A stretch of 64,000 nucleotides of DNA, from IMG/VR virus record IMGVR_UViG_3300049844_000277, positions 36,520 through 100,519 of that record; one strand, given 5' to 3'. Source of the DNA: a virus. The notes beneath the pieces are model-generated. The model was given only the letters and a program-made list of their open reading frames with translations, made no database searches and was not told the origin of the DNA. Position numbers and translations under genes: made by a program. Numbering within the stretch: the first letter of the stretch is position 1; each line of letters starts with the position of its first letter. Of the stretch, positions 7,241-37,100 are shown one piece after another.

Positions 7241-7268
7241 TGGGCCCACTAACTGGGAGCGAAGGAAC

Positions 7269-9083: not shown

Positions 9084-9085
9084 AA

Positions 9086-10885: not shown

Positions 10886-10891
10886 GGGAAT

Positions 10892-11308
10892 CTATCTCGC
10901 CCCGTATGGGTCATTAGGAGGCGGAGGTTGTTGAGGTTGAGACGGTGTCATGGCCTGCTGTATGCCCATCATAGCTAGGGGAATAGACGCTTGAATCGCC
11001 ATATCCCGCCCAAAACTTTTTAAACCTGATTTCCAACCACCTGGCTCTTGGGCTGGCGTTGCGGGGACCTCAGGTGTCTTTGGTACAGTGTCCGCAGACG
11101 TCACTGCCGGATTGGCGGTACCACCAAAAATAGGCGGCTTGCCTGCTGGCTGCTGTACCGGCGCTGCTGGCGATGTCTTCGGCGTAACAGGTTTGCCCTT
11201 CTGACCCTTCGCGAAGCGCAGCATCTGAACGGGCGCAGGCGCAGCCGTTTTCGTAAACGTCATCCACGCATCAGTAGTTCCCACAGAATAAAAGATATCG
11301 GCAATCAT
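10892..11308 (-). CDS. Hypothetical Pro/Ala-rich protein (138 aa) inside the split-rpoC locus
   Basis: ORF whose start overlaps the upstream stop (ATGA); low-complexity PA-rich sequence. Confidence 0.35.
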   Translation of the reverse strand: MIADIFYSVGTTDAWMTFTKTAAPAPVQMLRFAKGQKGKPVTPKTSPAAPVQQPAGKPPIFGGTANPAVTSADTVPKTPEVPATPAQEPGGWKSGLKSFGRDMAIQASIPLAMMGIQQAMTPSQPQQPPPPNDPYGAR

Positions 11309-11750: not shown

Positions 11751-12380
11751 TTAAGTACCGGCTCCACGGGAACCTCCTTCACAGAACATCATTCGCCGTA
11801 GGTCATCAGCATGCTGCTGGTCAGTAAGGACCATTTGCTCCAGCATGACCTTAAGCGACAAATTATCTCCGGCCATGTCTGACAGATGTCGTAACTCTTC
11901 AATCAATTGCTTCTCAGTTTGTAGAAGAGTCATGAAAATCTGGTGGAGGTCACTCATGTTCGGGATGACACCTACCTTAGGAATAGGTTCTCCGCCTAAC
12001 GCCGTAATCTTCATTGCGAGATGGTAGGCGTCCATCCGCTCTTCTTTGATGTGCTCTTTAAAGTGGTCGTAGATAACATCTCTAAAGTGCGCACGAATAC
12101 GATCGCCATAATTCATATACATGAAGATGATGGTATATTTGTAGCGCAGCAACTTATTACACTGAGCCACTACCTTATCCTGGGCAACCGCGAAGAATCC
12201 TTCCTCGGCCGATACAGCAAGAGGATGAGCACCAGCAGATGCTGTGGCAAGCGGAGGCATGGCGAACATCTCCTCCGTGTGCGGGGATGACTCCATTGTG
12301 TCCGCCATTGGACTGCTAGGAACTGGAAGACTCGAGCCACTCTCAGCCATGGAAGTACCCACTTTGTAGCGCTGCGTCAT
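11751..12380 (-). CDS. Hypothetical helical protein (209 aa) immediately after the rpoB-rpoC fusion; weak ferritin-like E/H spacing
   Basis: Start ATG overlaps the fusion-gene stop (ATGA). Paired E...H residues (KEHIKEERMDAYH, EQMVLTDQQH), but no clean ExxH pairs. Confidence 0.35.
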   Translation of the reverse strand: MTQRYKVGTSMAESGSSLPVPSSPMADTMESSPHTEEMFAMPPLATASAGAHPLAVSAEEGFFAVAQDKVVAQCNKLLRYKYTIIFMYMNYGDRIRAHFRDVIYDHFKEHIKEERMDAYHLAMKITALGGEPIPKVGVIPNMSDLHQIFMTLLQTEKQLIEELRHLSDMAGDNLSLKVMLEQMVLTDQQHADDLRRMMFCEGGSRGAGT

Positions 12381-15300
12381 GTACCCACCTCAACTCGAGT
12401 ATTGAGCGTAATCTCCCCGCGCTTATAGGCGGCGAGAGCTTCTTCTCTATTTTTGAAATGGCGTACTTTATCGTTCGCGGAACTCTCGGCTTTGGACGCC
12501 AAATGTACCCCAAGCATAGCTTCCATTCGTGGCGCTACCATCAAGCTATCTTTTTCACGGTCCGAGAATAGAAGGTTTGAGAGAGTCATCCCCTTCACTT
12601 CATCTATCGCGGGCTTCAGTACGGGAACGTGGATTTGGAATGTGTCCCAAACTACGAGGCCGTCGTTGACCGCGAAAATTTGTGTGTCAGGAACAATAAG
12701 GTCATAGACGGTTTCTTTTCTTAATACCTCGACCGACTCTACTAGATCCCAGGTAATTCCAACGTTCTCAACGATCCTTGCCCAAGCATCGACATCTGGT
12801 GTTTTGGCCGTCCGGAAAAAATGCAACATACGCCGAGCGTTTTGCCTCGTAACGTATGGAGCCTCTTTTCGTTTAGATCGTAGCGTAGCCAATGATGCGC
12901 AGAACGAACTATCTTCCGCGCACGGACCAGTACGGCTGGAGGCGAGGGTCATTAGATTTTTAGGAACAGGAACAATATCCACCTGATCCACAAGTTCATC
13001 AGCTTCTAGGAGGTTCAAAGCCTCCAAAGATTTAGAGTTGTTCCAAATTCCTCTACGAAGCCAGGACACGTTACGCTGGAGGTCTACGGTACTAATAGGT
13101 ATCGTATAAGCTACAGCTTTTTGGAGACGTCCCTCCTTCGGATATGCTTCGCTCACAGAACACCGGACGCCGATAGTTTGTAACAAAAAACGTAATGAAG
13201 CTGCTAACGCAGCAGACGACGTGTGAAGGGCGGCCATCACTTGAAGTTTTGCCTTACCGGCGCTGACAGTGAGTGTACCGTCACCGTTCAACATTCCGAT
13301 GAGCACACCCCACCGAGCCTCCTCAGACCAGTCCCCAAACGCTGGCACGCGTTTCGAGAGACAAGAGCGTCCGGGTACCCTCTCATCTAAGTAACAAGTC
13401 TTGAACAGCTCAACGCACTTCTGCGCACCACTAAAGTGGTCTTTGATACTTTGTCCTGTTATTCCGTTAGATGCGTCGTGTACCTCACGATACGTATTTC
13501 GCTTAATGAGCTTACCCTCAAACGCATTCACCGCGGCAGCAAAGCGTTCACGGTGCACGTCACTAACTTTCGTGTACCCGAAATAATGATCGGTTTCACC
13601 CAGTAAGAAACCGTCGGACAAGAATGCGCCGACCATCCATCCAAACTCAAAATCCCCCTGTGACCCCGTTAACGGTAAATGCCGCACAACCGGAGCTAAC
13701 TTTCCAACGGAATCCGAGGGCGCTGTTGCTTCGATCTGACCTGTTTCATGGTTATAAATACACAACGACTCATTCGTCGACGCCGTAACGCTTAAACCAC
13801 GACGCATTTCTACTTTCGCCACTTCGCATCCGTCTTCAATCGTAAGTCCTGTCACCGGGGACATTACTGATTTACTTGCGGAGTGGTCGTAAGAAAGAAC
13901 GCGAAAACCCTCCGGAACGGCGTAACTGCGAGCACCATTCTTGTCGATACTATAGGGCTCCTCAGCGTGTGGAATCTCTTGAAGCTCCGCTTCCACCAGC
14001 GCCTGTACCGCTGAGGTCCAACAAACACGAGTCTCTGCCGCGAATTTCATGGCTGTCTCCTTGGCTTCATCGCCAAGGAGCGCTTTACAAGCCGCACCTT
14101 CTGCTGTCAACACAACTTTCGTCGAACCCAAGAAACAGTTTCCATCGTAATCCGCATTGAAGCCAAGCTCTGCGAACGGATTTACGCGAATCGTCTTCCC
14201 CGCAACAGGGACGGCGTGAGCGCCAATAAACCCGTACCGGTGGAGAGTCGGAGCGCGATTCACCATCACCGGACGCTCCTTAATCTCCGCCATCAACGCG
14301 TCGTGCGCTGCCGGATGTTTCTTTTCCAACATCTCTTTCGCTTGAATGGCTCCGAAGCCGCGACGGATAAGGCGTGAGATAATAAACTTCCCGTACATGC
14401 CCCAAAGCATGTCTATCGGAATACCTATCTCATCCATGCTCAGAGAGCCGTCTGGAGCTATGGTTCCGCGGCCGGAGATATCTTGCTGCCGCTTCATTAT
14501 TCGTTTTTGGAAAAAGGAACTGTTCCCCGATACGGAAGGTTTACCGTTACGGCGAACAACTACAGTACCATTAGGGACTGTCACACAATACACGGTTCCT
14601 TTGTACGGGTACGCCTCGGTAAAAGAGCCCGACTCAATGGTGACATCAGAAAACCCCCGCACAGAAAAAAGATAATGCGGGAGATGGTGATCCTTAACTG
14701 GCGGACAAATTCCTCTAAAAATAACTTGGTAACCTATTTTTGCAGCGAGATGCTGTAGGTCATCAATTAATTGTAAACTAGCGGTACCGGCGTGAGCACT
14801 CAGCGGTTTACGCCGATAATGGGTTTTCGGGTTTTTCACGTTCTTCGCTAACGAAGGGTGAAGGGTTCCATCTCCACGCAGATATCCGCGCAATAATCCC
14901 TCTAACATAGCAGAAGGCCACGCTAAAATATCTGAAGATAAGTGTTTACTCTCGCACCCACGCCCGCAATGATGCGTTAACCAATCCGCCAGTGAGCGTA
15001 ACCTAATAGTCCACCAGATTACCTGGTATCCATCTTTACGCGTATATGTTTTGCGTACAAAGGGAATATCCAATTTTTTAAAGCACAAATCCACCGCGCG
15101 AACGTGTGGAGACGTTGCGGCTTGACACAAAGAAACCTGGGTTCCTGTTGTGGAAATCCAACCTTCCGCAATCCACCAACCTACAAACTCCGCAAAGGCC
15201 AAAGGATCTGGAGTAAATGTTCCTACTAAATTAGCCGTACGCCGTTTTTTGTTATCCGTAGAAACTTCACACGTATCTCCCGCGAAAACCAACTCCGGAA

Positions 15301-18300
15301 AAGTACCCTCCCACTCCTCAGCGCTAACCATTACCCTCCGGCGGTCCGTGCCTATAAAAGTATCCGCGCGTACCTTTTCCCACGGAGTCCAGACATAGAG
15401 CGCCTTACCGTTACTTACGCGCTTACGGCGATACGAGACTACATGTTCGTGGTTAGGTGTTACACATAAATCAAGTTCACGGCTGCGCGTATGTATCAGA
15501 TCTCCGTCGAACGGCATGGATACTAACGCGGTCGGCTTCTGCCATTCAAATTCCCGGGTGTCTAAGTTAACCGTAGCGACACGAGTTTTTCCGGTGTACT
15601 TAGAAAAACGAACCCACCCTTTTTCTGTAAGAATATCTGTTTGATCATCGTAACATTTTGGCGTAGTTTTCCCGGTAATATGCTCGAGAAATCCCTTTAC
15701 GTTTCTCTTTTGGAGTTTGGGGTTATCTGATTCGTGCGTACCAATCACGGCGCCTACCGCGTGAAACAAGTTCTGACGAAGCTTCGCTTGTTCATCCGGC
15801 GGAAGAATTGGAGATTCAATTTGCTTCCGTAATGACTGATTATGAAGGATAGCGCTTTGGTACAGGTAGTTCGAATCACCTACTACGAGCTCAGAGCCAC
15901 TCTTCCCCGGAAGAATGGGTCGCATTATTGGAGGAAGAACAGGCAACTTGGATAGGACGTACGCATCTCCCGGCTTGAGCTCCTGCCGATTCAGCGCCTC
16001 AAGGAACTTCAACTGCTTTACTGCGTCATCTAGCTTCGTACCGGAGAGCGACTTAATAGAGTTACGGAGCTCCGCGATACGCGCCTTAACGTCGATAGCG
16101 TTAAGCTTTTTCTTTACCGCAGCGCCACCATTCGTATGGTGATACTGGTCAAAATCTTTCGCGGTCATCCCCAGCAAGCGACGGGCAGGGTCGGCGAATA
16201 CAGGATTTACAACGGGCTCGGCGAGCTCAATGTGGCTCCACCGTGTTCCAGTGGTACCGCCAGTAACCGCGGGGTCAAACAATCCCCCACGTTCAGCGGC
16301 CAAATCTTTAGCGCGTACTAACTTCTCATTTTGTACTTCGCCAGATGACATCCGTAGAATGTCTTTATCGGTAAGCGGAGAGAGCGTGCTGATACTTCCA
16401 CGCGAATCAACTTTGACCCCTGCGCCATGCAGCATACCGATGAACTTGTCATAAACGAACGACGACTTGAGTGGAGGGAGAGGCAGTCCCAGCTGAATCG
16501 CCCGCCAGAACTCATCGTTCTTCTGGCTCTTAATAGCCGCCGTCTCTCGAAGCACGTTCCGCGCATTATGTGCAACGAGGGCATTGAACTCCATTTTACC
16601 GACGGCTTTCGCGCCTTCGTCACCGCCCTTAATTGGCTGCTGATTAACGTCGTACGCACCCGTACCGCGCGCGGCGTAGTTGGTCTCCGTGGTCTTAAAC
16701 AAGCGAAGTACGTATTGCGGCCCAACCAGGATTCCCGGAATCTTTTTACCCGACACAGGGTCTATCAGCGTTTCCTTGTCCTTGACCTTGTGCTCCTTCA
16801 GTAAATCCTTTGCCCACTGTACGTTGTCACGCCCTGAAAAGTTTTCAACGACAATAGGTTTACCGATTTTCTTGGCAACCTTAGCGACACACGTCTCTAG
16901 TATTTGCGACGGATTGATTCGGGAAATTACGCCAGCCGAGGTATACAAAACCTCAATCGGCTTACCCGTCTCATCTTGAAGCATCTTGTGATCGGGAACA
17001 ATAAGGGAAACAACGCCCTTGTTTCCGTGGCGTCCTGTGTTTCCGCACCATACTGATTTACCATTTCTGCGAACATACAAAACATGTCCAGGAACAGTTA
17101 CACAGTAAACTGGTGATTTGTACGAATCTACAAAACATTCCACCTGACCCTTCTGTCGTTTGATATGTCCATGATTCACAGTAGGTGTTAATTTCGAATT
17201 AATAATTCGTACCTGCCAATAATCACGACACCAAAAATCTTTACCTTTGATTGTTTGATACCCTTCAGCTTTCGCTAACGACACATTAGCAGCTTTACCA
17301 ATATGTAGTGCGAGACGCTGAACATCATCCGCCAAACGTTTGGATGTTGTTTTGTAGCATATCGGTTGGCCATTTTTAGTATGACCGTCACCCCACATCA
17401 ACCAGTTGAATAGCGTCTCTTGATCCGCTCGAGACCAAGCGAACACCTCAAGCGGGATAAATTTCTCGTAAGACTTACCGAACTGTTTAAAGTACTGCCA
17501 ATATTGCTTGGAATGAATACGAACCTTATCACCTGTGTCCGTGAATAAAATCCCTTCCTCACGAAGAAACTTTTCTAACTGTTTTCGATTTGGCTGATTA
17601 ATTTGCGTAATCTCTATGCCGTAAGTACCGGATTCTTCAATCGTAATGAGATTACCTTCAGATAAAAACGCACCGAGAAGAGCGGCTAAGGTTTTAGTCG
17701 GAAGCGCTTTATCATCTAAAACACGTAAACCCCGGCCCCCTTGTCCCGCGCGCACAGTTATCGAGTCAAATACAAACGACTCAGGAGAGTGCCCCACCCA
17801 AATCCCATCCTTCTTATAACTGACCCTTTTTCCTGCGATTTCATACGCCGGTAAAAGTTGGAAAGATTTCTCGTTGCGCGGTTGAACGTACATATGATGT
17901 CCGTCGGTCACAAACAAATCTACCTGTTGTGATTCGATGCGGTACATCCGTCCGCCTTCTGGATACGAATGAATTGCGTCGGGCTCTAGGTACTCGATAT
18001 TTTCGCCATTCTGTAACGTACAAATCTTATCCGTAATACGTACATCCGCTATCGGTTTCCACCCTTCCCACGTGAGAACCTCAGTCTCTGCATCATAACA
18101 GAGCTTGTCTCCGACGCGCATCGGCTCACGGGTCTTAACCGTTACAACGACACGCTTGTCCGTCACATAAACATCCATGACTTCACCTTCGAAGTCGTGG
18201 TCCCACGTACGAACAAGTTCCCGATACGGCGTAACTAACGTCTTCTTTAGGTTACCGAGAAGCGCATCAGACGCCGAAAGTTTACCTCGTGTGACTCCAG

Positions 18301-20887
18301 CGATGAGTATGTCGTGAGGCATAACCTTCATGCCCTTCTTCACGACACCATTGGGGTCAAGCTTACGATACTGCTCTGCGGTATACTTCGACCCGTAGTA
18401 CTGCTGATGGATATCCCTGCCAACCTTGGAGTCGCGATCTACTTCAACAACTTCCTTGTACATATGCTCTGACGTTAACTTCTCGGCGGCGCCAGAGGAG
18501 ATAACGACGGCATCGTTGGAGTTCATTCCGTAATACGGAACGTACCCTACCGTCATATTCGTACCGAGAGCGAAGGAACCGTTGCGGGTAAAATTAGACT
18601 CCGCGAGCGGCTGATCCGCTTCTACCTTATCACCAGGCTTCACCAGAATGTCGTGATGAAGGTGTGTCTTAGATGCGAACGGAAAATTATTCTCGTATGG
18701 AACCCGAATCAAATCTTTCTCAGCAGCTACCTTTTCCCGATTACGCTCGGAGAGGTAGTCCTCTTTAAACTCATCCCAGGTATACTCATCCATGGAACCG
18801 TAGCCCCAAGGAGGACCGTGCTTCTCGTAAGCGCTTTTAGCGGCCTCTTTGGAATCGAAGCCAAGCATGCACTTGTCTTCGTCGTGAGACCCATCCTTCT
18901 TGCGCTGATGTACGACGTAAACATTATCGAAAGAACCATCTTCCTTCAGATAAACGTCGACCGTTTCACCGTCGTCGCCGACGGTCTTAGGAATGTGTCC
19001 GTAGGCCACGGACATCTTCTTTTCCCACTTCTCTCCTTCGGCGTTAGTGCCGGTACGAATATCTCCCGGTTCAAGCTCAATCTTAACGAGCACACCTTGA
19101 ACAGTCTTTTGACGCTTGACCGCCCCGCCTCGTTTCTCGAAAGCGCTCTTCTCGCTTAAGAAATCTTCAGCGTGCTTCTTTCCGCTAGGGTCGATGTAGA
19201 TGTATTGCCCATCAACCTTCACTACTTTGCCCGCTACAGGTGCCGTAGGAAGAACCAGCCCCGCGAGCTCCTTCTCCCAGCTTGAATGCTCAACACCCTT
19301 CTCAGTCAACTTATTGGCGGCTGATTGTACAAGAGGTGCTTCGCGATGAACGAGAGGAAGGGCTTGTGTTTGAACCTTACCACCCATGATGGCACGGTTC
19401 CCCTGCATCGACTCAAGGAACGGGACAAGGTTAGTTGCCGGAGAATACAACTGAGCCACGTCGTACAACTGGTGAGTCACCTTTGCCGCTGGTACGTGCT
19501 CCAACTGCCCTTTGTTCATTGCGGTGACCATTCCCGTAAGCTTTTGCTTAGGGAACGCCACGACCGCCTCGGACATTTGAGCCGCAGACAGCATCTCATA
19601 CTTACCGGACTTAATGTTCTTAGCTGCGGTGTAGAGATTTCCCGTAGCATCCCGGTGCGCCATCATCGCCGTGCGAATATCAATACCAGCGCGGAAGGAC
19701 TCAGACGTACGAACGGGGTCCAGTATCCCTAGATGACTCGAATGAATAGTACGCGCTTCAGCGGGAATCGCGCGCTCATTCGGAATACCTCCTTCGCCGA
19801 GAGATGTAACACGCACAGCGTGGTCGATGGCCTCCATCGGGTTGATGTGCGTGGGAATCGAGCTCAGTTGTGAACCCGTAAGAAAACTTCGGATGCCGGG
19901 CGAAAAGGGCGACGAAGGAAGAATCGCACGGAGTTCAGTCTTATGTGTTGCGCGACCCTTTACCTTATTTGCCAGGGCACGTGCATCCAGCGTTATACGT
20001 TCCTTGATAAAATCGTCTACCGAATGATACGTCTTGAAACGTAAAGCGTCACGATCATCAGTATCCGCATTATCCCGGTACACCTGTAATAGCCGCTTCG
20101 ACGCAACGAGTAGTGCCTGCGGCGTAACCGATGAAAAAGCGTGCCCCAAGGTTTGTTGGTTAACCTCGGGATCCATAGACGTAACAGCGTAAGCTGCTCG
20201 AATAGCATCAAGCTGTGTCTCAGGATTAGTCGCAGCACGTTTAGCCGGATGCACTACTTTCTCGTAAAGCTTATTCAAATGCTTATCGTGCTTACCTTCG
20301 AAAGCCGCCTCATTTTGATGAGCGACATCCGAGCCCCAATGAGTAGAAATATCAGCGTGCGGAACGCCTAATTTTCGAAGTACGGGGTAAAGCGGAATAG
20401 ATGTCGTCCCATACTCGATGTATGGATGTCCTTGGGCAGGGTCTAACGAAAGTCGAAAATTGGTTCCCTTCGACAAGTTAAAGGCGGCCTCTAGTTCCTC
20501 ATTTCCACGTCGCCGCGTATAGACGCCAGGCTTGAGCCGAAGTTGATTTGATACGTTGTACTCGTTACCGTCCAAAATAAAAGTATGCCGTCCTGTGAAA
20601 TAAGGAAGACTCAATAACGTAAAGTTCTTAACTTTCTCAACTTCTTTACCGGAAGCATCACGTAGTGTGACGGTTCCTTTTATCGGCTCAGAAAGAGAAC
20701 CACCGCTCAATAGCGCGTGCTTTTGATCGTTTGGGCCAAAGTCCTTTTCATGGACCTTCAGGTCACTGACCTCAATACTCTTATCCCGCAATGTCAGTGG
20801 AAAAGCGTTTCGCAACGCATCGAGCGCCTTTGCACGAATTTGAACTCGACGGGACTCGGCATCGGTAAGCACGGGAGTGAGCGACAT
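12377..20887 (-). CDS. rpoBC: Fused DNA-directed RNA polymerase beta subunit plus beta' N-terminal half (2836 aa), interrupted by three LAGLIDADG inteins
   Basis: Beta motifs: N-terminal GTFILDGNEYNVSNQLRLKPGVY; VTSLGEGGIPNERAIPAEARTIHSSHLGILDPVRTSESFRAGIDI; FLESMQGNRAIMGGKVQTQALP; NMTVGYVPYYGMNSNDAVVIS; MRVGDKL/TGRHGNKGVVS split by an intein; LETCVAKVAKKIG; GTGAYDVNQQPIKGGD...GKMEFNALVAH. From about aa 1500 come beta' motifs: GHIELAEPVVNPVF; LPVLPPIMRPILP; SNYLYQSAI; NRAPTLHRYGFIGAHAVPVAGKTIRVNP; NADYDGN/TFQIHVP split by an intein. The ORF ends about 90 aa after the catalytic loop. Confidence 0.9.
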   Translation of the reverse strand: MSLTPVLTDAESRRVQIRAKALDALRNAFPLTLRDKSIEVSDLKVHEKDFGPNDQKHALLSGGSLSEPIKGTVTLRDASGKEVEKVKNFTLLSLPYFTGRHTFILDGNEYNVSNQLRLKPGVYTRRRGNEELEAAFNLSKGTNFRLSLDPAQGHPYIEYGTTSIPLYPVLRKLGVPHADISTHWGSDVAHQNEAAFEGKHDKHLNKLYEKVVHPAKRAATNPETQLDAIRAAYAVTSMDPEVNQQTLGHAFSSVTPQALLVASKRLLQVYRDNADTDDRDALRFKTYHSVDDFIKERITLDARALANKVKGRATHKTELRAILPSSPFSPGIRSFLTGSQLSSIPTHINPMEAIDHAVRVTSLGEGGIPNERAIPAEARTIHSSHLGILDPVRTSESFRAGIDIRTAMMAHRDATGNLYTAAKNIKSGKYEMLSAAQMSEAVVAFPKQKLTGMVTAMNKGQLEHVPAAKVTHQLYDVAQLYSPATNLVPFLESMQGNRAIMGGKVQTQALPLVHREAPLVQSAANKLTEKGVEHSSWEKELAGLVLPTAPVAGKVVKVDGQYIYIDPSGKKHAEDFLSEKSAFEKRGGAVKRQKTVQGVLVKIELEPGDIRTGTNAEGEKWEKKMSVAYGHIPKTVGDDGETVDVYLKEDGSFDNVYVVHQRKKDGSHDEDKCMLGFDSKEAAKSAYEKHGPPWGYGSMDEYTWDEFKEDYLSERNREKVAAEKDLIRVPYENNFPFASKTHLHHDILVKPGDKVEADQPLAESNFTRNGSFALGTNMTVGYVPYYGMNSNDAVVISSGAAEKLTSEHMYKEVVEVDRDSKVGRDIHQQYYGSKYTAEQYRKLDPNGVVKKGMKVMPHDILIAGVTRGKLSASDALLGNLKKTLVTPYRELVRTWDHDFEGEVMDVYVTDKRVVVTVKTREPMRVGDKLCYDAETEVLTWEGWKPIADVRITDKICTLQNGENIEYLEPDAIHSYPEGGRMYRIESQQVDLFVTDGHHMYVQPRNEKSFQLLPAYEIAGKRVSYKKDGIWVGHSPESFVFDSITVRAGQGGRGLRVLDDKALPTKTLAALLGAFLSEGNLITIEESGTYGIEITQINQPNRKQLEKFLREEGILFTDTGDKVRIHSKQYWQYFKQFGKSYEKFIPLEVFAWSRADQETLFNWLMWGDGHTKNGQPICYKTTSKRLADDVQRLALHIGKAANVSLAKAEGYQTIKGKDFWCRDYWQVRIINSKLTPTVNHGHIKRQKGQVECFVDSYKSPVYCVTVPGHVLYVRRNGKSVWCGNTGRHGNKGVVSLIVPDHKMLQDETGKPIEVLYTSAGVISRINPSQILETCVAKVAKKIGKPIVVENFSGRDNVQWAKDLLKEHKVKDKETLIDPVSGKKIPGILVGPQYVLRLFKTTETNYAARGTGAYDVNQQPIKGGDEGAKAVGKMEFNALVAHNARNVLRETAAIKSQKNDEFWRAIQLGLPLPPLKSSFVYDKFIGMLHGAGVKVDSRGSISTLSPLTDKDILRMSSGEVQNEKLVRAKDLAAERGGLFDPAVTGGTTGTRWSHIELAEPVVNPVFADPARRLLGMTAKDFDQYHHTNGGAAVKKKLNAIDVKARIAELRNSIKSLSGTKLDDAVKQLKFLEALNRQELKPGDAYVLSKLPVLPPIMRPILPGKSGSELVVGDSNYLYQSAILHNQSLRKQIESPILPPDEQAKLRQNLFHAVGAVIGTHESDNPKLQKRNVKGFLEHITGKTTPKCYDDQTDILTEKGWVRFSKYTGKTRVATVNLDTREFEWQKPTALVSMPFDGDLIHTRSRELDLCVTPNHEHVVSYRRKRVSNGKALYVWTPWEKVRADTFIGTDRRRVMVSAEEWEGTFPELVFAGDTCEVSTDNKKRRTANLVGTFTPDPLAFAEFVGWWIAEGWISTTGTQVSLCQAATSPHVRAVDLCFKKLDIPFVRKTYTRKDGYQVIWWTIRLRSLADWLTHHCGRGCESKHLSSDILAWPSAMLEGLLRGYLRGDGTLHPSLAKNVKNPKTHYRRKPLSAHAGTASLQLIDDLQHLAAKIGYQVIFRGICPPVKDHHLPHYLFSVRGFSDVTIESGSFTEAYPYKGTVYCVTVPNGTVVVRRNGKPSVSGNSSFFQKRIMKRQQDISGRGTIAPDGSLSMDEIGIPIDMLWGMYGKFIISRLIRRGFGAIQAKEMLEKKHPAAHDALMAEIKERPVMVNRAPTLHRYGFIGAHAVPVAGKTIRVNPFAELGFNADYDGNCFLGSTKVVLTAEGAACKALLGDEAKETAMKFAAETRVCWTSAVQALVEAELQEIPHAEEPYSIDKNGARSYAVPEGFRVLSYDHSASKSVMSPVTGLTIEDGCEVAKVEMRRGLSVTASTNESLCIYNHETGQIEATAPSDSVGKLAPVVRHLPLTGSQGDFEFGWMVGAFLSDGFLLGETDHYFGYTKVSDVHRERFAAAVNAFEGKLIKRNTYREVHDASNGITGQSIKDHFSGAQKCVELFKTCYLDERVPGRSCLSKRVPAFGDWSEEARWGVLIGMLNGDGTLTVSAGKAKLQVMAALHTSSAALAASLRFLLQTIGVRCSVSEAYPKEGRLQKAVAYTIPISTVDLQRNVSWLRRGIWNNSKSLEALNLLEADELVDQVDIVPVPKNLMTLASSRTGPCAEDSSFCASLATLRSKRKEAPYVTRQNARRMLHFFRTAKTPDVDAWARIVENVGITWDLVESVEVLRKETVYDLIVPDTQIFAVNDGLVVWDTFQIHVPVLKPAIDEVKGMTLSNLLFSDREKDSLMVAPRMEAMLGVHLASKAESSANDKVRHFKNREEALAAYKRGEITLNTRVEVGT
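12644..14137 (-). mobile_element. Intein 3 (about 498 aa, LAGLIDADG type) inserted in the catalytic NADFDGD Mg-binding loop of beta'
   Basis: Sequence NADYDGN-CFLGSTKVVL...FGWMVGAFLSDGFLLG...WGVLIGMLNGDGTLT...VYDLIVPDTQIFAVNDGLVVWD-TFQIHVPV. The flanks align with the bacterial NADFDGDQMAVHVP. The C-terminal residue appears to be Asp with Thr at +1; the exact boundary is uncertain. Confidence 0.7.
14522..15655 (-). mobile_element. Intein 2 (378 aa, LAGLIDADG type) in RNAP beta' N-terminal region
   Basis: Starts CYDDQTDILTEKGW. Motifs FVGWWIAEGW and LLRGYLRGDGTL. Ends YCVTVPNGTVVVRRNGKPSVSGN followed by Ser. Excision gives ...ITGKTTPK-SSFFQKRIMKRQQDISGRGTI, aligning with the bacterial [24 protein letters not shown]. 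Confidence 0.75.
17039..18100 (-). mobile_element. Intein 1 (354 aa, LAGLIDADG homing-endonuclease type) in RNAP beta between GDKL and TGRHGNKG
   Basis: Starts CYDAETEVLTWEGW (block A-like). LAGLIDADG-like motifs LLGAFLSEGNL and FNWLMWGDGHT. Ends ...YCVTVPGHVLYVRRNGKSVWCGN followed by Thr. Excising it restores GDKL-TGRHGNKGV, matching the bacterial GDKMAGRHGNKGV. Boundaries verified on the DNA. Confidence 0.8.
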
Positions 20888-22362: not shown

Positions 22363-25300
22363 TTATACAGGCTGATTTTGTTGCGCCATTTGCGCCTTCG
22401 CCTGCTGTCCTTGTTGGTTCTGAAGATCTTCCAGGCGTTGAATGACAACCGCATGCATCACAGCGTCTTCCTTACTTAAGCTATCCAACTGTGAACGCCT
22501 AGAACCAACATCCAGCCCCATGAGCTGCTGCACTATCTGGTCAGCCTGCGCGATGACCGCCTGCTGGTCGTAGTTGAGCCCAGGAGTACCTTGAGCCTGT
22601 AGCTGAACCTGCTGGGACAAGTTATTCTGTAGTTTTCGTAGCTCATTCTGGACGCGCTGATTGTGCCGCGCCTCATCAAGAGTTTCTTGTAGACGCTTCT
22701 CTCGTTCTGCGTCCAAATCAATGTCGAGTCGCTCTAGTATGGTAGTCATTGAGACGTACGAGGGACCCGCTTGCCCGGTAGCCATGCTGAGCAGTAATTG
22801 TTTAGACTCAGTGTCATCGACCATCTTCAAAGGCGTAAGTTTCGCCTCTATCTTCTCCCAGCCAAGATACCGGGACATCTGGTCGCTGTACCACTGTAGT
22901 AGGTCATTCATATCATCCGCGTGCCCTTGCGTTTGATTCTGAATGAGCCGGAGAGTTGCCTCCATGCCTGCTTTAGTTAGTCCACCGTAGAGGAACTCCT
23001 GCGGAATACCTAACGCAGCCATAATGCTCTTCTCAGCTTCTTGAAGCTCACCGAGCGTTAACATCGCCCGTCCATCGCCACCAAGATTGGATACACCAAG
23101 AGCTACTGGTGCCATCATTATGTGTAAGGGGTCACGTCGCCAGCGACGAATATTTTGTTTCATTTCATCTTGCCAACGCGCAAGAGAAATCATTTGCGTA
23201 AAATCTTGCTGTCCGTTTTGTGCGGGATGCAAGATACGCATTGGCACGACGTGCTCCAGCGCGATCGAATTTTTAGTAGCCCCACCCGCGATACAAAACG
23301 TGGAATCCTCCGCGATCTTGAAGTCAATGTATTGTTCCTCTTCCGACTCCTCTACCACGCTCACTCTCGCCGCAAAATAATCTTTCCAGAAAAAGCCACT
23401 CTTGCCGATGGTAATCTCTTCCGCATCCTCCCAATTCCATAGCGCGTAAAGCCGCTCTTGGGACGCACCGCTAACCCGTACGTGGTAACTCGGTCCGTTT
23501 GGGGTAATAACACGCCCATCAGCAAGCGCGTGAATCGGGGTAATGTGCTCACGAATCGTCGCAATACATCCTACGTGAAGGAGCATACGGTAAACATCAT
23601 ACGCAAGGCCCGCACTGGAGGTGGCGAGAGTATCTTGCCCTTCCCGCGTGTGACCATCCGCCTCCCAGAGACCTTTCAAGAATGCGAGCTTTACAGAATC
23701 CGGCGCATGAAATACTTCCGAAGGAACGCGCTTAACGCGCGCGGTTCCCGGAACCATGCCCTTGATGAGAGCCTTCACAATCACATCACACAAGGTAACC
23801 ATGCTACAGTTACCTCTCTGATTGTATCCACCGCACTCCAAGCCAAACTCTCGCCGAATTGCTTCCCGGAGGGGCTCTTCCGTCTTACTGCCCATCGCAA
23901 TCATAACGGTACGCTGGTTACAGGAACCATTTCCAACGTAATGCCCGAGGATATACGCGAAGTCCTCTGTCATCGGGCGCGTCGCGGGGAGGCGTTTTGG
24001 AACGGACCCTTCTTTCAGCTTCCTACGCGCAATCTTCCCAGGGACTCCCTTCACATGCTCACCGGCGCTCTCCGCCTCAAACGCCTGCGCGGAGGGTAAT
24101 GACATCGCGCTGTAAACGTAATTCTCGGTGTTCGCGAAACCGGTGTACTTAGCAACATCTACCTGCTGCGGCTCCGACGGAATTGTCCGGGGGTAGAGGA
24201 TATAATCACCCTTCTCGAACTGTTCCGCGGGACACATCACCTCTTCGTACAAATGCGGATTCTGAAGAATCTCCGACGACGTCTGCTTGTCTTTCGTATC
24301 CGACCGACGTGCGTCGCTTGTCCGTCGAAGGGTAAGGATGGGATGGTGCGGGGAAAATACCCCGCTGAGATGCCGAAGCCCCGAAAGCGTAATACGGCAT
24401 CCGATTTCATCATCCTTCGCATCCCGATACCACTTCTGCTCGACTGGACGCCACCGCCCGAGGTGTGTTCTCACCAAGTCGCCAACACGTACATCATCCG
24501 CGGGCACGAGACCGGTAGACGTCTCAATGAGTGTATCGAGACTGACGCACTCGTTCGCCTTCCTTAGCGTCATGGTGTAGAGGAAGAGCTTGATTGTCGA
24601 CGCAAGCGGAGGAAATCCCCACTGCTGGTCAATACCCGAAGGACTTGGAACCTTGATATGAAAAAGAGCGTCCTTCTCAAAACGAAACGTCTTGTTGTCT
24701 CGAATGTTTTCCAAGAACTCCATAGGCATCGAATTAATAAGATGCTTTGACCCCGATTTAACTTGGTCCTTAACGTCCTGCGGGATGTTATAGTAGTATA
24801 CAGATTGTCCCGTAATCGGATTGTAATCTATATCCATTAGCTTGGGATCCCACCGAATAATATGGACCCGGCTAGCAGCTAGAATCTTACGGTCAACGAC
24901 TGTACCACGCACATCTCGCTTGCAATGCAGGCAGTGGTAGGTGAAAGCCAGCGATTTCAGCTCAAACTTGTAATCAGTGTGCTGAATAGCAACGAGTTGC
25001 TGACAACTAGGACACTTCAGACTACGAACGAACGGCTTATAAATTGATGTAAAATGATTGCCATATATGTGCTTATCGAGCGACGCCATGAGAAGCGCAC
25101 TCTTAATCTTCAAAGTTTTTTCAAAAAGACGGCGATAGTTGCGCCGGAGTGCTTCATTCGATGTTCCGTACTCGAGGTCAGTTACGACGAGCTCTCCAAA
25201 TTTACGCAGAGCCGCGTAAACATGTGCACTATTATACATCAAATATTCGCACCATTTAAAGAGATCTTTTAGCTTTCTTGGTACAAAACCCGTTAGGAAG

Positions 25301-25374
25301 TCATGTGCAGGGTTTGGGTGTGAAGCCGCCCGGTCAAAAACGGACATTGTATCAGTGTTAGGAAGGTCAGCCAT
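22363..25374 (-). CDS. Putative portal / head-tail connector-like protein containing an intein (1003 aa precursor, about 576 aa spliced)
   Basis: Extein has the Q-rich C-terminal tail typical of portals (QQVQLQAQ...QQAKAQMAQQNQPV), and the gene sits first in the structural operon. N-extein has a CPSC...HCLHC zinc ribbon. The portal assignment is tentative. Confidence 0.45.
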   Translation of the reverse strand: MADLPNTDTMSVFDRAASHPNPAHDFLTGFVPRKLKDLFKWCEYLMYNSAHVYAALRKFGELVVTDLEYGTSNEALRRNYRRLFEKTLKIKSALLMASLDKHIYGNHFTSIYKPFVRSLKCPSCQQLVAIQHTDYKFELKSLAFTYHCLHCKRDVRGTVVDRKILAASRVHIIRWDPKLMDIDYNPITGQSVYYYNIPQDVKDQVKSGSKHLINSMPMEFLENIRDNKTFRFEKDALFHIKVPSPSGIDQQWGFPPLASTIKLFLYTMTLRKANECVSLDTLIETSTGLVPADDVRVGDLVRTHLGRWRPVEQKWYRDAKDDEIGCRITLSGLRHLSGVFSPHHPILTLRRTSDARRSDTKDKQTSSEILQNPHLYEEVMCPAEQFEKGDYILYPRTIPSEPQQVDVAKYTGFANTENYVYSAMSLPSAQAFEAESAGEHVKGVPGKIARRKLKEGSVPKRLPATRPMTEDFAYILGHYVGNGSCNQRTVMIAMGSKTEEPLREAIRREFGLECGGYNQRGNCSMVTLCDVIVKALIKGMVPGTARVKRVPSEVFHAPDSVKLAFLKGLWEADGHTREGQDTLATSSAGLAYDVYRMLLHVGCIATIREHITPIHALADGRVITPNGPSYHVRVSGASQERLYALWNWEDAEEITIGKSGFFWKDYFAARVSVVEESEEEQYIDFKIAEDSTFCIAGGATKNSIALEHVVPMRILHPAQNGQQDFTQMISLARWQDEMKQNIRRWRRDPLHIMMAPVALGVSNLGGDGRAMLTLGELQEAEKSIMAALGIPQEFLYGGLTKAGMEATLRLIQNQTQGHADDMNDLLQWYSDQMSRYLGWEKIEAKLTPLKMVDDTESKQLLLSMATGQAGPSYVSMTTILERLDIDLDAEREKRLQETLDEARHNQRVQNELRKLQNNLSQQVQLQAQGTPGLNYDQQAVIAQADQIVQQLMGLDVGSRRSQLDSLSKEDAVMHAVVIQRLEDLQNQQGQQAKAQMAQQNQPV
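23269..24549 (-). mobile_element. Intein (427 aa, LAGLIDADG type) in portal-like protein
   Basis: Starts CVSLDTLIETSTG (classic block A). Motifs ILGHYVGNGS and FLKGLWEADGHT. Ends YIDFKIAEDSTFCIAGGATKN followed by Ser. Boundaries verified on the DNA. Confidence 0.75.
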
Positions 25375-27488: not shown

Positions 27489-27931
27489 GATTAATCCTAG
27501 AAAAAAACGAAATCGTCGCCATCTTGGGAAAACATTTCGACGTTGAACTAGACCCCGAAAAAGTAATCATCAAAACAGACCCGCTAGAAATCGAAGTAAG
27601 CGGAATTCCCATGACCGACGCACAACCACGAGAAGAAACGAATGTTGTAACGCTAAGGTCTGGACCAGGAACATATTCAGCGGTGAAGAGCTCTGCGGTG
27701 GATCCAACGGACATCGTCAAAAAGCGAGATGACCCCGACGCTACGACGGAACCGCCTACACCAGGAGACGATGACTTGGGCGGTCCGGGACAAGACTTAC
27801 ACCCGGCAGCAGTCCTTGCGGCATCAAAAGCTCTCGAGCGACAACTCGAACAAGAGAATCCCCTCCTTAAGAGACGAGCCGGACGAGGAACCTCTCGCGC
27901 ACCTGAAGGATTTGAAAACGAGATTACGTGA
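27485..27931 (+). CDS. Hypothetical acidic protein (148 aa)
   Basis: ORF with start/stop overlaps to both neighbours (translational coupling). Confidence 0.45.
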   Translation: MRLILEKNEIVAILGKHFDVELDPEKVIIKTDPLEIEVSGIPMTDAQPREETNVVTLRSGPGTYSAVKSSAVDPTDIVKKRDDPDATTEPPTPGDDDLGGPGQDLHPAAVLAASKALERQLEQENPLLKRRAGRGTSRAPEGFENEIT

Positions 27932-28833
27932 TGACCAAAGGCAACGTTCTGGAACAACCTCACGCGACGGGCCCGAAACCCTCACGTACACAAAAACTGT
28001 TACATCAATTAAACGTTAAGGAAGACTTTCTAGACCTTAAGCTACCCAAAGGTTTTTTCTCAAACTCGCAGTACAACAGCTGGCTAATTTGCGGTCGAGC
28101 ATACGAGTTTAAGTACGTAGAGCAAGTTCCTACGCCTGAGTACGCCTCAACAAGCCGTGGAAACGCTGTGCACGCGGGCGTAGAGCACATGCTTCGAGCG
28201 AAGCTCGCTAGCAAGCACACGACAGTAGAGGAAGGTAGAGAAGTAGTAAGTAAGGTATTCGACGAAAAAGCAAAAGGCGTTGTTGATTGGGGCGAAGAAG
28301 AACCCGGTAAGATTAAAGACGTAGCCATACGACTATTTAACACCTACGCAACATACGGATTACCGAAGGTCAATCCCATAGGGATCGAAGAAGGATTCGC
28401 GAAAAAAGTAGGTGACGTACCGATGGTTGGGTGGGTAGATTTAATCGACGAACAACCCGCCGTAGTAACCGCCAACATGGCGGAAGAGGATGCCGCACTA
28501 GCTCCAACACGCTTAATCACCGCAGACCTAAAAACCGGAAAAGCGAAATGGAGCGAAAAGGAAGTAGCACTTGACCCACAGCTGACTCTGTACTCATACG
28601 TAGTCGGAACACCTTATGTGCGTGTCGACCAACTCATCGACCACAAAAAGGCACCGACATTTCTTCAAGCTAACAGCACAAGAACTCCCCGAGATGCTGA
28701 AATTTTGGTAGAGCACGTCAACGAAGTAGCTGACTTCGTAAGAAAAGGAATCTTCCCAAAAACACACATTGATAATTGGGCATGCGACTCCGGGCATTGT
28801 TCGTTCTGGGATCTGTGTAGAGGAAAAAGATAA
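27928..28833 (+). CDS. PD-(D/E)XK nuclease of the RecB/Cas4 family (301 aa) with C-terminal Cys cluster
   Basis: GWVDLIDEQ...ITADLKTGK (DxKTG signature of RecB-family nuclease domains) and C-terminal CDSGHCSFWDLC. Confidence 0.7.
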   Translation: MMTKGNVLEQPHATGPKPSRTQKLLHQLNVKEDFLDLKLPKGFFSNSQYNSWLICGRAYEFKYVEQVPTPEYASTSRGNAVHAGVEHMLRAKLASKHTTVEEGREVVSKVFDEKAKGVVDWGEEEPGKIKDVAIRLFNTYATYGLPKVNPIGIEEGFAKKVGDVPMVGWVDLIDEQPAVVTANMAEEDAALAPTRLITADLKTGKAKWSEKEVALDPQLTLYSYVVGTPYVRVDQLIDHKKAPTFLQANSTRTPRDAEILVEHVNEVADFVRKGIFPKTHIDNWACDSGHCSFWDLCRGKR

Positions 28834-33288: not shown

Positions 33289-34128
33289 TTGAGCTCCGCT
33301 CTACCTGTCTGTGTCATTACAAAGGACGCGCACATGTCTTTACCCCTGCCCGAGTACGTACTGAAAGGCATGCCGTGGTCCATCTCTAAGGCGGGGGTAG
33401 TATCTAAGTGCTCCCAGCAATACGAATACAAATACGGCCCGCTAAGAAGAACGTACATTGAAGAAACGTCTTCTTCTGAGGAGAGCCGTATCGGAATCGC
33501 AGTACACCAAGCACTAGAGTTCAGCTTAGACAGGATTCCTGTAAAGCAAGCCTTCCAATTCGCCGCCGACAAGAATGAGCTCACGACTAACGAAGTAGAA
33601 AAGATCAAAAGTTTCTACGACCAAGTCACTCGCTTCGTCGCGTTCATCGAACGCTTTAAGGCAAAGTACGGAGTAAAGCCACAAAACGTACTCATCGAAT
33701 ACCGGATGGGGTTATCTCCGGAGTTCAAGCATACGTCATTCAACGATGACAGCGGACTATTCCGGGGCGTAATAGATTTGATGATGATAACCGAACAAGG
33801 TGACGCGGTAATCATCGACCACAAAACCGGAAAACAAAAAGAGATGTCGATGTACGAGGACCAGTGCAAAGCTTACTGCATCCTTGCTTTAGCCCTGCGC
33901 CCTGAACTCAAGGGAGTTCAAACAGCGATCAACTTCGTACAAACCGACCAGGTTAAGTGGAACTCCCGAGTAACCGCGGAAACTATCCGTGAAAAGTACT
34001 ACCCATGGCTCGTCGATTTCCTAACGCAAGCCTGTGCTGCGCTACAGAATCCTCCCCAGCCTAATGAGGGTTGGTGGTGTGGCTGGTGTGGATACAAAGA
34101 TACGTACTGCCCCAAATTCAAAAAATAA
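33289..34128 (+). CDS. Second PD-(D/E)XK RecB/Cas4-like nuclease (279 aa) with C-terminal Cys cluster
   Basis: GVIDLMMITEQGDAVIIDHKTGK (DxKTG signature) and C-terminal WWCGWCGYKDTYC. Confidence 0.65.
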   Translation: MSSALPVCVITKDAHMSLPLPEYVLKGMPWSISKAGVVSKCSQQYEYKYGPLRRTYIEETSSSEESRIGIAVHQALEFSLDRIPVKQAFQFAADKNELTTNEVEKIKSFYDQVTRFVAFIERFKAKYGVKPQNVLIEYRMGLSPEFKHTSFNDDSGLFRGVIDLMMITEQGDAVIIDHKTGKQKEMSMYEDQCKAYCILALALRPELKGVQTAINFVQTDQVKWNSRVTAETIREKYYPWLVDFLTQACAALQNPPQPNEGWWCGWCGYKDTYCPKFKK

Positions 34129-34143: not shown

Positions 34144-37100
34144 GTGCCCACAACCCGAGGAGCTCTCATGGAGAAGCCCGCAGAAATCTGCAGCGGATGT
34201 CCTCGAGAAATCGAGACAGAGACCCATCCCTACGGTTATGTTGAATCGTGGATTGATTCAAACGCCGAACTCATCATCATAGCGGAAGCTCCTGTCTGCG
34301 ATCGCCACGGTAACGTTCCTAGCTCTTTCGACGATGACAGCGGTAAAATCATTCGAACCGCCGTATCCGAGCTACGTAACTTACCTTCGCACAGTAAGCT
34401 AGCGGTCTCGTATACGTACGCAGTACTCTGTACAAGCAACCAGGGCGACAAAGACCCCGAAAAAGCCGTACTGCAACGGTGCCGTACGCTGCTCCAAGCT
34501 GACTTACGTCGCGCAAACAAGAACGCCGTCCTGCTGGTAATGGGTATGTCTGCCCTTCGCGCACTAGAAATAAAAGCCGCGAAGTTGAAGGACATGCAGG
34601 GGCGATTACTCCAAAAGCAGAAAATTGGAGAAGGTGATGACGCTCCGATATTCGATGTCGTCGTAACCGTCTCGACAAAACAGTTGTTCGCGATGCCGGG
34701 AATCTACACGACGTTCGTAGCGGACCTGCGACGAGCTGCGGACGCTGCGAGCGCAGGTGGATTAACACACGTTACCCCACTCGAAAAACTAACCGAAAAA
34801 TACGTAATCCCGAAAACAATCGAAGAAGTACGCCAAATCTGTCGCGAAATACTGAATTATCAAGAAGGTAAAGTATCTGCAGATAACTGGCCTATCTCTG
34901 TAGACACCGAGACAAACACCAAGTTTCCACACCGAGAAAACTTGAAAGTATTGGCGGTGTCCTTCGCATGGGCGGAGGGTAAAGCTACTGCAATTCCATT
35001 AGAGCACCCCACTACACCCTACGCGTACCAAGACGCGATACCGTACGTACGCGAAGTCTTAGCGAGCAAGAAGCCGAAGTTCCTTCATAATGCTAAGTTC
35101 GACCTTAAAGTCTTCATGAAAGCGGGCTGGCCGATTAACGGGTTCGCTTGGGATAGCATGCTAGGGGAACATGCTCTCGAAGAAGATAAAAAGGGACAGT
35201 ACGGATTAAAGCAGTTGACCCGTACTTTCTTCCCGGAATTCGCGACATACGCCGACTCTCTTCAAGAAATGCTCACGCACGAAGAGGGCGACTCGCAGCT
35301 CGACAACCTGAGGAAAGCGCCAAAAGCTTCAACTTCGAAAGATGGGGGATTTGAAAGTATCCCACTTCCCACGCTATTGCTTTATGCGGCAGTCGATGCA
35401 GATATGACACGGCGGCTAGTGTTACTGCAGGAAAAAAGAATTACCGACGAGCAGAACAGAGTAATCGTAGAAACGAATATAACGAAGAGAGAGCAGGCGC
35501 TGGCGATTTCGGCGAGGAAGAAAATACGGCTGAGAATTGCGCCGCTACATAGTGAGACGGAGATGTTGAAGAAGTACATGGTGCTCTACCCCGTCCCAGA
35601 ACTCTGTTCCGCTGATAAGCCGGTAAGACAACTAGTACTGAACAACGTATTCCCCGTTACCCCAGCTCTCGCGAGAATGGAGTTTAAGGGCATACGGATA
35701 GACAGACCGTACCTAACTACGTTGCGTGAAGCGTTGGGAAAAGTCGTCACAGAAACCGCTGCAGAGCTACAGGATATGGCGGGCAGAGAGATAACTCTCA
35801 ATAGTCCGGCAGAGATAGCTGAAATCCTGTTCAACAGCGGGTTTATACATCCAACAACTCACGCCCCCACGACTTATCCCCTCACAGGCATCGGTAAGAC
35901 AAAAACGGGACAGATACAAACCACCGAGAAAGTGATGCAGTACTTGGTGGCGAAGTATCAGTGCCCCTTTGCAGCTAAAAAACTAATCTACGCCAAGGCA
36001 TATAAAGCGAAAAATACGTTCTGTCAGAATGTGTGGGATCTCTCGGAGCTCGACGGGTATCTACACACGAACTACAACCAGCACGGCACAAATTCGGGTA
36101 GACTGTCCTGTGTCGCGGGAGAAACCGTACTAGATACTAATTACGGAAAAATCGAGATACAGAATCTCGATCTGGAGAAGATGCCGGGGATTACCATCCA
36201 GACCCACGAACTCCGCGAACAACCGATTCTACGTAAAATAGAAAAAGGCATTGAAGAAATGTTCGAGGTCGAACTCGAAGACGGGCGCACCATCACCGTG
36301 ACTAAAAAACATCGCTTCTTGACGCCGACGGGGTGGAAACGACTCGAGGAACTGTCAGAAAATGCCGAAATACTCTGCGCCGCCTCCGTGGGTAGTGGAC
36401 CAAATATGCGACTCGTTACAACCCGGATAAAAAGCATACGTCCCGTAGGTCCTAAGAAAGTCTGGGACCTCACAGTAGCGGTCGATCACTCTTACATCGC
36501 CCACGGATTTGTTAACAAAAATTCCAACGATGAAAACATGCAAAACATCCCCAAGAAATTGGCGGGTGTTAACATTAAGAAAGTGTTCCTCCCGGACGAT
36601 GATTCGTATGTCTTCGTCAACGCTGATGCGAAGGGTGCCGAAGTACGAATCCTAACCGCCTACTGCCGAGACCAAGCGCTCATACAATCGCTCAACGCGG
36701 GGCAGGACACGCATTGTTTCATCGCGTCCAAGATTGTTGAAATCGTACGTCAGAGTCCTGGTGCAACGGCGGTTCTCGGAAGCATGAATCTAAGCGATGA
36801 GTATCCTCTGACGTACGAAGACTTCGCGGCTAGAGACAAGCTAAAAGAAACCAATAGTAAGTACGGGGCGATGCTCGACAAATTCAGAACCGCTGTCAAA
36901 CGCGTAGTGTTCGGTATTCTGTACGGCGCCGGTCCTCAGAAAATTGCGGAAACTATTGGTATCAGTCTAGAGCAAGCACAACAGCTCATTCACACTCTGT
37001 TCGCTTTGTTTCCGTCCATCAAGACGTACATGGCGCAGACAAAGTGGGAACTACAACAATTTAATTTAGTCGAAACGTTCTTCGGTAGACGCCGTAGATT

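Follow-up and report, generated by a model that had tools for sequence, protein, structure and literature searches.

The window considered here is a 64,000-nucleotide (64-kb) stretch of the IMG/VR virus record IMGVR_UViG_3300049844_000277, and the gene for its portal protein, the ring that admits DNA to the capsid, is interrupted by a predicted intein of 427 residues. It is very probable that in this uncultivated Arash-like phage (~170-190 kb) the portal is made as a 1003-residue precursor with a class-1 intein after Glu275; the endonuclease of the intein is probably disabled, and the intein would persist mainly by descent and recombination. Inteins in portal proteins are known already, and what is new here is the intein allele, the insertion site and the host portal family. 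The coordinates of the features are given in Table 1.

The insertion and its boundaries

The original prediction, made from the letters of the window, placed a 427-residue insertion in the 1003-residue open reading frame (ORF), beginning with CVSLDTLIETSTG (residue 276) and ending with GGATKN (residue 702) before a Ser residue, and it described the rest as an extein of about 576 residues with a Q-rich C-terminal tail. The extein of 576 residues and its tail are both present, and both ends of the insertion are matched by intein-less homologs. With the spliced extein as query, 660 relatives were retrieved from a set of 5.8 billion proteins. The inserted segment is missing from 117 of the 120 best portal clusters, which are ~570-610 residues long, and is present in three: P0011, P0012 and P0001, the last being a singleton cluster that holds the window's own portal protein. 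In the alignment the empty alleles read LRKANE/AIALEH and the occupied alleles LRKANE/C...ATKN/SIALEH (a slash marks a junction), and both boundaries are exact and land where they had been predicted. Empty alleles up to 88% identical were among those aligned. The long ATG start of the ORF is supported by the N-terminus MAD.PN.D, which the portal homologs share.

At the DNA level the insertion is 1281 nucleotides long with clean junctions. Chance is ruled out because these 1281 nucleotides stay in frame without a stop codon. Directly after the insertion comes a Ser codon in the window (TCG) and in the occupied relative L002 (AGC), and the empty alleles of L003 and L004 have an Ala codon (GCC) there. 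The empty-site sequence is CGCAAGGCGAACGAA/GCCATCGCGCTCGAGCAC, and as carried by L004 it is TTCCTCTACACCCTCGTTCTCCGCAAGGCGAACGAA/GCCATCGCGCTCGAGCACGTCGTGCCGATGCGCATC. At least 11 further contigs, independent of one another and drawn from different samples, have the same intein at the same portal codon.

Intein identity and splicing residues

Pfam finds LAGLIDADG_3 (7.7e-12) in the insertion, together with a sub-threshold Hint_2 match that starts at residue 1 and covers the first 50-72 residues. The NCBIfam matches are confined to the intein portions of the models for Tes, DnaB, V-ATPase A (VMA), GyrA, RNR, RpoA'', PolII, IF2 and RFC, and the matches among PDB sequences are the VMA intein 7qss/7qsu (TliVMA) and PI-PkoII. 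Because Pfam is blind to the C-terminal splicing blocks, BLASTP against a canonical intein and profile comparison with hhalign were used. The canonical intein, P0123, lies in a thiamine-enzyme-like protein and is matched over residues 1-332, blocks A to E. The alignment pairs block A, in which the Cys nucleophile comes first (CVSLDTLIETSTG, aligned to Cys1 of P0123), VFSPHHP with VLTPDHP, and both LAGLIDADG motifs. For hhalign the endonuclease was removed in silico from four family members (A4), and their profile was compared with that of five mini-inteins (A5), namely the Pfam-validated PolA mini-intein of the window, endonuclease-deleted P0123, Mxe GyrA, Ssp DnaB and Npu DnaE. The match extends over columns 1-170, through KN/S, and pairs YIDFKIAEDSTFCIAGGATKN/S with VxDLxVxxxHxFxxNGxxxHN/x, which comprises blocks F and G. 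The blocks by which the insertion was to be judged an intein are recovered in this way, A and B by BLASTP (3e-16) and F and G by hhalign (96% probability, E 2.8e-9).

Three of the splicing residues are not canonical. Block B has Ser for Thr, the block-F His is replaced by Ser or Thr, and Lys426 stands in place of the penultimate His. However, Cys1, Ser66, His69, the block-F Asp409, Lys426 and Asn427 are invariant among 12 alleles, whose members are 52-76% identical. Inteins without a penultimate His do splice, for example the cyanobacterial DnaE inteins (PMC5874633), and the PolA mini-intein of the window likewise ends KN/S. The block-F His and the penultimate His are frequent but not obligatory features of inteins.

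The +1 residue of occupied alleles is Ser (TCG or AGC), or Cys in P0122, and the same extein position is Ala in 108 of the 118 scorable clusters among the 120 best. This indicates that the intein brings the +1 nucleophile with it. When the window is compared with L002, the proportion of synonymous differences (pS) is 0.68-0.94 (~0.8 in the intein) and that of nonsynonymous differences (pN) is 0.11-0.18 in extein and intein (0.16 in the intein); synonymous sites are saturated, and only pN/pS and a single regional ratio of nonsynonymous to synonymous rates (dN/dS) are usable. The pattern fits a splicing-competent intein that has long co-diverged with its host gene.

Portal identity of the host protein

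The extein had been called portal-like, and this assignment stands. For the spliced extein, an AlphaFold2 (AF2) model computed from an alignment of 71 sequences reaches a predicted local distance difference test (pLDDT) score of 76. Foldseek against the PDB gives 90 matches at E<=0.001, and the top 50 are all phage portals with probability 1.0. They include the portals of HK97, 7-7-1, HFTV1, E217, T4, lambda, T1 and N4. In phage genomes, tblastn finds hypothetical proteins of three Vibrio phages (33% identity), the "portal protein" Gp204 of Salmonella phage Arash (31% identity, 2e-78) and the portal gp14 of Bacillus phage G (22% identity, 9e-8). Gp204 has been detected in Arash virions by mass spectrometry with 93% coverage and 877 spectra (PMC10585845).

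In the extein model a helix (residues 257-282) is followed by strands and short helices (286-336), a helix (340-360), a loop, a 37-residue helix (374-410) and C-terminal helices. Judged by known portal architecture, without superposition, this order appears to match a stem-clip-stem-tunnel loop-wing helix-crown layout. The intein would then fall within the final third of the first stem helix, a long helix that runs from the wing, at the entry to the clip. The sequence around the insertion site is nearly invariant in the homolog alignment, and Asn274 and Glu275 are invariant.

The N-terminal (wing) region of the portal also has a CxxC...CxxC arrangement (C121, C124, C148 and C151) that is invariant in 71 homologs. 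It lies within a beta-rich segment that weakly resembles the L33 zinc ribbon and is probably a zinc ribbon itself. To our knowledge there is no precedent for such a zinc-ribbon-like motif in a portal protein.

The endonuclease domain and the distribution of the intein

The LAGLIDADG blocks predicted in the insertion are present. In addition to the Pfam match, two motifs align with those of 7qss/7qsu and PI-PkoII. Motif 2 has its catalytic Asp. Motif 1 has Asn at the position held by the catalytic Asp in the VMA intein (7qss/7qsu) and by Glu in PI-PkoII. This Asn is common to the window, P0011 and P0012, and Asp is found instead (GWYAGDGS) in eight IMG/VR alleles and in L005. Since these sister alleles keep Asp, the Asn is taken to be derived in the sub-lineage of the window. 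In LAGLIDADG enzymes, one or both strands are no longer cut once the Asp at the end of the motif is changed to Asn. The endonuclease of the window intein is probably crippled, or a nickase, because its first active site has Asn for Asp.

Searching IMG/VR with the intein profile brought up another eight full-length copies with 52-58% identity, all in portal homologs, all at the same site and all ending TATKN/S. Carriers make up three of the 120 best clusters, and eight IMG/VR loci compared with 223 portal relatives, or ~3% of related portal alleles, always with the intein at the same site. A separate locus search with the portal alignment gave no clean frequency, as one of its patterns spans the empty site and the 80 loci kept are biased toward intein-less alleles.

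Six intein-less clusters (P0038, P0039, P0052, P0056, P0071 and P0099), scattered in the tree, have Ser at the +1 position (KANE/SI). These Ser residues may have been left behind by exact loss of the intein, or they may mark target sites that were adapted beforehand. A further copy of the portal intein is found in L005, a 178-kb relative, and has one in-frame TAG (9998..10000) where other alleles have Gln. Either a nonsense mutation or an error of sequencing could account for the TAG, or it could be read as Gln. The portals of L087 (~5136..10995) and L089 (~5130..11064) are 1953 and 1978 residues long and contain the same intein plus an extra insertion of ~900 residues, which begins 20 residues downstream of the intein (SDPY/CLSVSTL...) and has its own LAGLIDADG motifs. 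The presumed clip region of the portal is a multi-intein hot spot.

Other inteins of the window

Five inteins had been predicted in the 64 kb, and all are confirmed: one in the portal, three in the RNA polymerase and a mini-intein in PolA, and thus in three genes. The three RNA polymerase insertions are clean relative to Arash Gp206 and to the intein-free allele of L003. A 155-residue insertion in the same protein is not an intein but an inorganic pyrophosphatase (InPase) domain. Four intein sites were found among ~35 related RNA polymerase genes. Three are occupied in the window, more than in any other of these genes, and in relatives of the window phage the RNA polymerase has 0-2 inteins. 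PolA is 998 residues long in the P0009 lineage and 1127 in the window, a difference close to the 138 residues of the mini-intein. None of the five window inteins has a penultimate His. The residue is Lys in the portal and PolA inteins and Gly, Gly and Trp in those of the RNA polymerase. The window comes from an unusually intein-rich phage lineage.

RNA polymerase intein 3 interrupts the Mg-binding loop. In the retrieved loci the 31 empty alleles all read NADYDGD/(T, A or S), and all occupied alleles read ADxDGN/C...(V or I)WD/T, with Asn at position -1 in place of the third Mg-binding Asp. The occupied alleles are those of the window, L002, L005, L096/97, L100 and L099, which are at least six distinct alleles with an intein identity of 27-58%; outside the window the pattern was noted in L002, L005 and L095-L101. 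A locus search with the single intein-3 sequence retrieved nothing, and one with a three-allele alignment succeeded. The last two residues of the intein are Trp-Asp, not the usual His-Asn, and Glu replaces the His of block B. Because the intein spans Cys to Asp by homology, the ligated polymerase would read DYDGN-T, with Asn for the third catalytic Asp. Setting the insertion at N-C...V-W, so that the Asp is retained, would require no substitution relative to the empty allele, but this alternative was rejected as it leaves no nucleophile at position 1 or +1. A search of the literature collection available found no intein in the NADFDGD loop and no Asp-terminated intein. The pattern of the catalytic-loop intein is odder than that of the portal intein.

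Proposed explanation and alternatives

It is proposed that the HINT splicing domain of the portal intein is split by a two-motif LAGLIDADG homing-endonuclease domain. Cys1 would undergo an N-S acyl shift, aided, as the residues suggest, by Ser66 and His69 of block B, and the thioester would be passed to the +1 Ser. Asn427 would cyclise with Lys426 in place of the penultimate His, and an O-N shift would join Glu275 to Ser, releasing the 576-residue portal and the free intein. The spliced portal would then assemble into a dodecamer. Splicing would have to precede head assembly, because an intein of such size in the stem or clip should block ring assembly. At the DNA level the element is, or has been, mobile: it is sporadic, uses one highly conserved site and brings its own +1 Ser or Cys codon where empty alleles have Ala. 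Its persistence would now depend mainly on descent and on recombination between co-infecting phages.

Several points weigh against this explanation. Both histidines that usually assist Asn cyclisation, those of block F and the penultimate position, are absent, and Pfam never saw the C-terminal splicing region, whether in the full protein, the intein or the endonuclease-deleted construct. Three of the five reference mini-inteins used for hhalign (Mxe GyrA, Ssp DnaB and Npu DnaE) were entered by hand, and MAFFT misplaced block B of P0123 in the reference alignment. The AF2 model of the intein, from a 6-sequence alignment, has a pLDDT of 55, with the C-terminal 55 residues below 30, and is too poor to show the HINT fold structurally; even so, the top PDB matches of this low-confidence model in Foldseek are TliVMA, PI-PkoII and PI-SceI, which is supportive. 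The stem/clip placement comes from secondary-structure order only, in a monomer model with a pLDDT of ~50-75 around residues 241-390. Finally, the endonuclease core is under purifying selection and a near-identical empty allele exists, both of which would also fit an endonuclease that is still active.

A fully active endonuclease, with the motif-1 Asn tolerated or compensated and the intein now spreading by homing, is a serious rival to descent plus recombination. The endonuclease core has a dN/dS of ~0.1 between the window and L002, and motif 2 is intact. The extein of P0012 differs from the intein-less P0009 at three of 579 residues, two of which, +1 and +2, lie beside the insertion site and resemble a short co-conversion tract. 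The neighbouring genes of the two have the same sizes and spacing, and the presence of the portal intein is polymorphic between near-identical phages. However, the Asn stands at the metal-binding Asp/Glu of solved intein endonucleases, and 31 contigs have the empty P0009 and a single contig the occupied P0012, unlike the picture given by a sweeping element. Recombination between phages can also move or remove an intein without an endonuclease. Current homing is considered possible though doubtful, and descent plus recombination is favoured.

A broader suggestion is that the inteins of the window lineage are not ordinary parasites but form a co-adapted set whose removal is obligatory for the maturation of virion proteins (portal and virion-type RNA polymerase), with splicing creating or gating the polymerase active site. 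The shared lack of a penultimate His and, most clearly, the pattern of the catalytic-loop intein would be signs of this. Conversion of Asn to Asp would be coupled to an Asp-terminated, non-canonical branch resolution, or else the polymerase would be functional as DxDxN. The portal intein would serve as an assembly checkpoint, selected after loss of the endonuclease. This is regarded as unlikely.

That the insertion is a dead relic which is not spliced, either an extra domain of the mature portal or part of a pseudogene, is less likely still. The two missing histidines, the blindness of Pfam to blocks F and G and the in-frame TAG of L005 are what such a relic might show. On the other side, the residues indispensable for splicing are all invariant, and the ORF is uninterrupted throughout and shows purifying selection. 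The +1 nucleophile is confined to occupied alleles (the six clusters noted above apart) and is provided by Ser codons that are not interconvertible or by Cys. No second portal-like ORF was seen among the scanned ORFs of the window, a search that covered the window and not the rest of the genome. The DnaE inteins described above splice without a penultimate His, and the Pfam-validated PolA mini-intein also ends KN/S.

It is hardly credible that the extein is some other virion or DNA-handling protein. The extein has no Pfam match and reaches the PHROG portal family phrog_64 only at E 0.015, a profile made from the extein alignment retrieved only noise from PDB sequences (CdiA toxin, L33 zinc ribbons), the Foldseek template-modelling scores (TM-scores) are low at 0.3-0.5, and the terminase gene is 13 kb away. 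These points are set against the uniformly portal structural matches, an order of helices and strands that fits a wing-stem-clip-stem-wing-crown layout, the Arash homolog, abundant in virions and annotated as a portal, and the match to the portal of phage G. The chance that the insertion is a chimera or artefact of metagenomic assembly is negligible, for although P0001 is a singleton cluster, the insertion is in frame with clean junctions and recurs at its codon in the independent contigs noted above.

Gene neighbourhood

The portal had been predicted to head a structural operon. It is the first gene of a leftward block that continues with a 165-residue ORF, a 2836-residue RNA polymerase beta-beta' fusion, a ferritin-like gene, the beta' C-terminal gene and a 927-residue homolog of the Arash virion protein Gp218. 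The block is virion-associated, but the next large gene downstream of the portal is the RNA polymerase fusion rather than one for the capsid or tail, and the prediction holds only loosely. What had been called a structural operon is a virion-associated gene block that opens with the portal and a virion-type RNA polymerase. In Arash both RNA polymerase subunits have been detected in virions (PMC10585845). The ferritin-like gene is directly downstream of the fusion and overlaps it, a position kept in L002 and L003. The InPase domain (PF18823, 1.6e-32) is inside the beta part of the fusion and occurs in metagenomic relatives and not in Arash.

An HNH endonuclease, an EndoVII gene and a reverse transcriptase had been counted as further selfish elements of the region. 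The EndoVII gene is present, and RuvC-like and PD-(D/E)XK nuclease genes are also found. An HNH endonuclease was not found in the ~50 ORFs scanned, a set that comprises most of the ORFs of at least 120 residues. The reverse transcriptase gene is present and is retron-type (PADLOC RT_XIII, 1.6e-46; Pfam RVT_1), neither a group II intron nor an obvious selfish element, and the ORFs that flank it have no family matches.

Table 1. Positions in the window of the portal gene, its intein and other features (a slash marks a splice junction; residue numbers are those of the encoded protein)
Feature	Position	Strand	Remarks
Portal protein precursor gene	22363..25374	-	1003 residues plus stop; ATG start
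N-extein	24550..25374	-	Portal residues 1-275, ends LRKANE; from alignment with homologs
Portal intein	23269..24549	-	427 residues, Cys1 to Asn427 (precursor residues 276-702)
C-extein	22366..23268	-	Residues 276-576 of spliced portal; +1 Ser (TCG) first, Q-rich tail last
Intein block B	24340..24360	-	VFSPHHP (Ser66-x-x-His69 replacing TxxH); invariant in family
Intein blocks F and G	23269..23334	-	QYIDFKIAEDSTFCIAGGATKN; block-F Asp present, block-F His absent, penultimate Lys, terminal Asn
LAGLIDADG motif 1	23923..23952	-	ILGHYVGNGS; Asn at catalytic Asp/Glu position
LAGLIDADG motif 2	23653..23682	-	FLKGLWEADG; catalytic Asp present
Portal CxxC...CxxC	24922..25014	-	N-terminal (wing) region
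RNA polymerase intein 1	17039..18100	-	354 residues (930-1283), GDKL/CYDAE...VWCGN/TGRHGNKG
RNA polymerase intein 2	14522..15655	-	378 residues (1745-2122), TTPK/CYDDQ...SVSGN/SSFFQ
RNA polymerase intein 3	12644..14137	-	498 residues (2251-2748), Mg-binding loop, NADYDGN/CFLGST...GLVVWD/TFQIHVP
PolA mini-intein	36109..36522	+	138 residues, SGRLS/CVAGET...GFVNKN/SNDENMQNIP
InPase domain	18692..19156	-	155 residues
Ferritin-like gene	11751..12380	-
Beta' C-terminal RNA polymerase gene	9086..10885
Terminase large subunit gene	38794..40398
Reverse transcriptase gene	47331..48467	+
EndoVII gene	40547..41185	-
RuvC-like nuclease gene	56889..57446	+
PD-(D/E)XK nuclease gene	27928..28833	+
PD-(D/E)XK nuclease gene	33289..34128	+

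Significance and comparison with known systems

For annotation, a 1003-residue "hypothetical protein" of this kind can be read as a 576-residue portal plus an intein. The family offers a natural series for the life cycle of an intein, with active-looking (Asp) and crippled-looking (Asn) alleles, empty alleles with Ala or a Ser "scar", an occupied and an empty allele that are three residues apart, and portals that hold two inteins or three. For the engineering of new splicing chemistries, the five inteins that lack a penultimate His may be of interest, especially the catalytic-loop intein with its invariant Asn at -1 and Trp-Asp end. Should the polymerase active site prove to be formed in step with splicing, a new kind of post-translational control would be at work on a virion enzyme.

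It had been suggested that inteins are uncommon in portals. The portal is a minority host protein for inteins, but there is no novelty in the association itself, as portal inteins are documented in actinobacteriophages, for example in mycobacteriophages of cluster C1 (Kelley et al. 2016, PMC5050341; bioRxiv 10.1101/2025.01.02.630785). Those inteins are likewise LAGLIDADG-type, lie in the portal gene of tailed phages and are sporadic among relatives, and they too point to phages as intein reservoirs. The window differs in that its portal family is unrelated in sequence (no Pfam/InterPro portal match) and belongs to Arash-like large metagenomic phages, and its intein has a penultimate Lys and the motif-1 Asn.

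The best sequence and fold matches of the intein, the VMA intein 7qss/7qsu (TliVMA), PI-PkoII (2cw7) and PI-SceI (1vde), also have a HINT domain split by a two-motif LAGLIDADG domain. They are only 12-17% identical to it, and they keep an acidic residue in both motifs where the window has Asn in motif 1. These reference inteins also keep a C-terminal His-Asn, and the portal intein of the window ends Lys-Asn. The cyanobacterial DnaE inteins, with Ser or Ala at the penultimate position (PMC5874633), show that class-1 splicing can be efficient in the absence of the penultimate His; unlike the portal intein, they are split mini-inteins without an endonuclease and lie in a replication protein.

Arash (OQ632216, PMC10585845) shares with the window the portal, the small ORF, the giant RNA polymerase beta-beta' fusion, the beta' C-terminal gene and the virion protein, but it has no inteins in its portal (Gp204) or in Gp206 and no InPase insertion. 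Multiple self-splicing elements in essential genes have been described in other large phages, among them crAss-like phages (PMC7886860) and Jug phages (PMC12880540). The emphasis there is on group I introns and free-standing endonucleases, whereas the window has five inteins in three genes within 64 kb, three of them in a single RNA polymerase gene.

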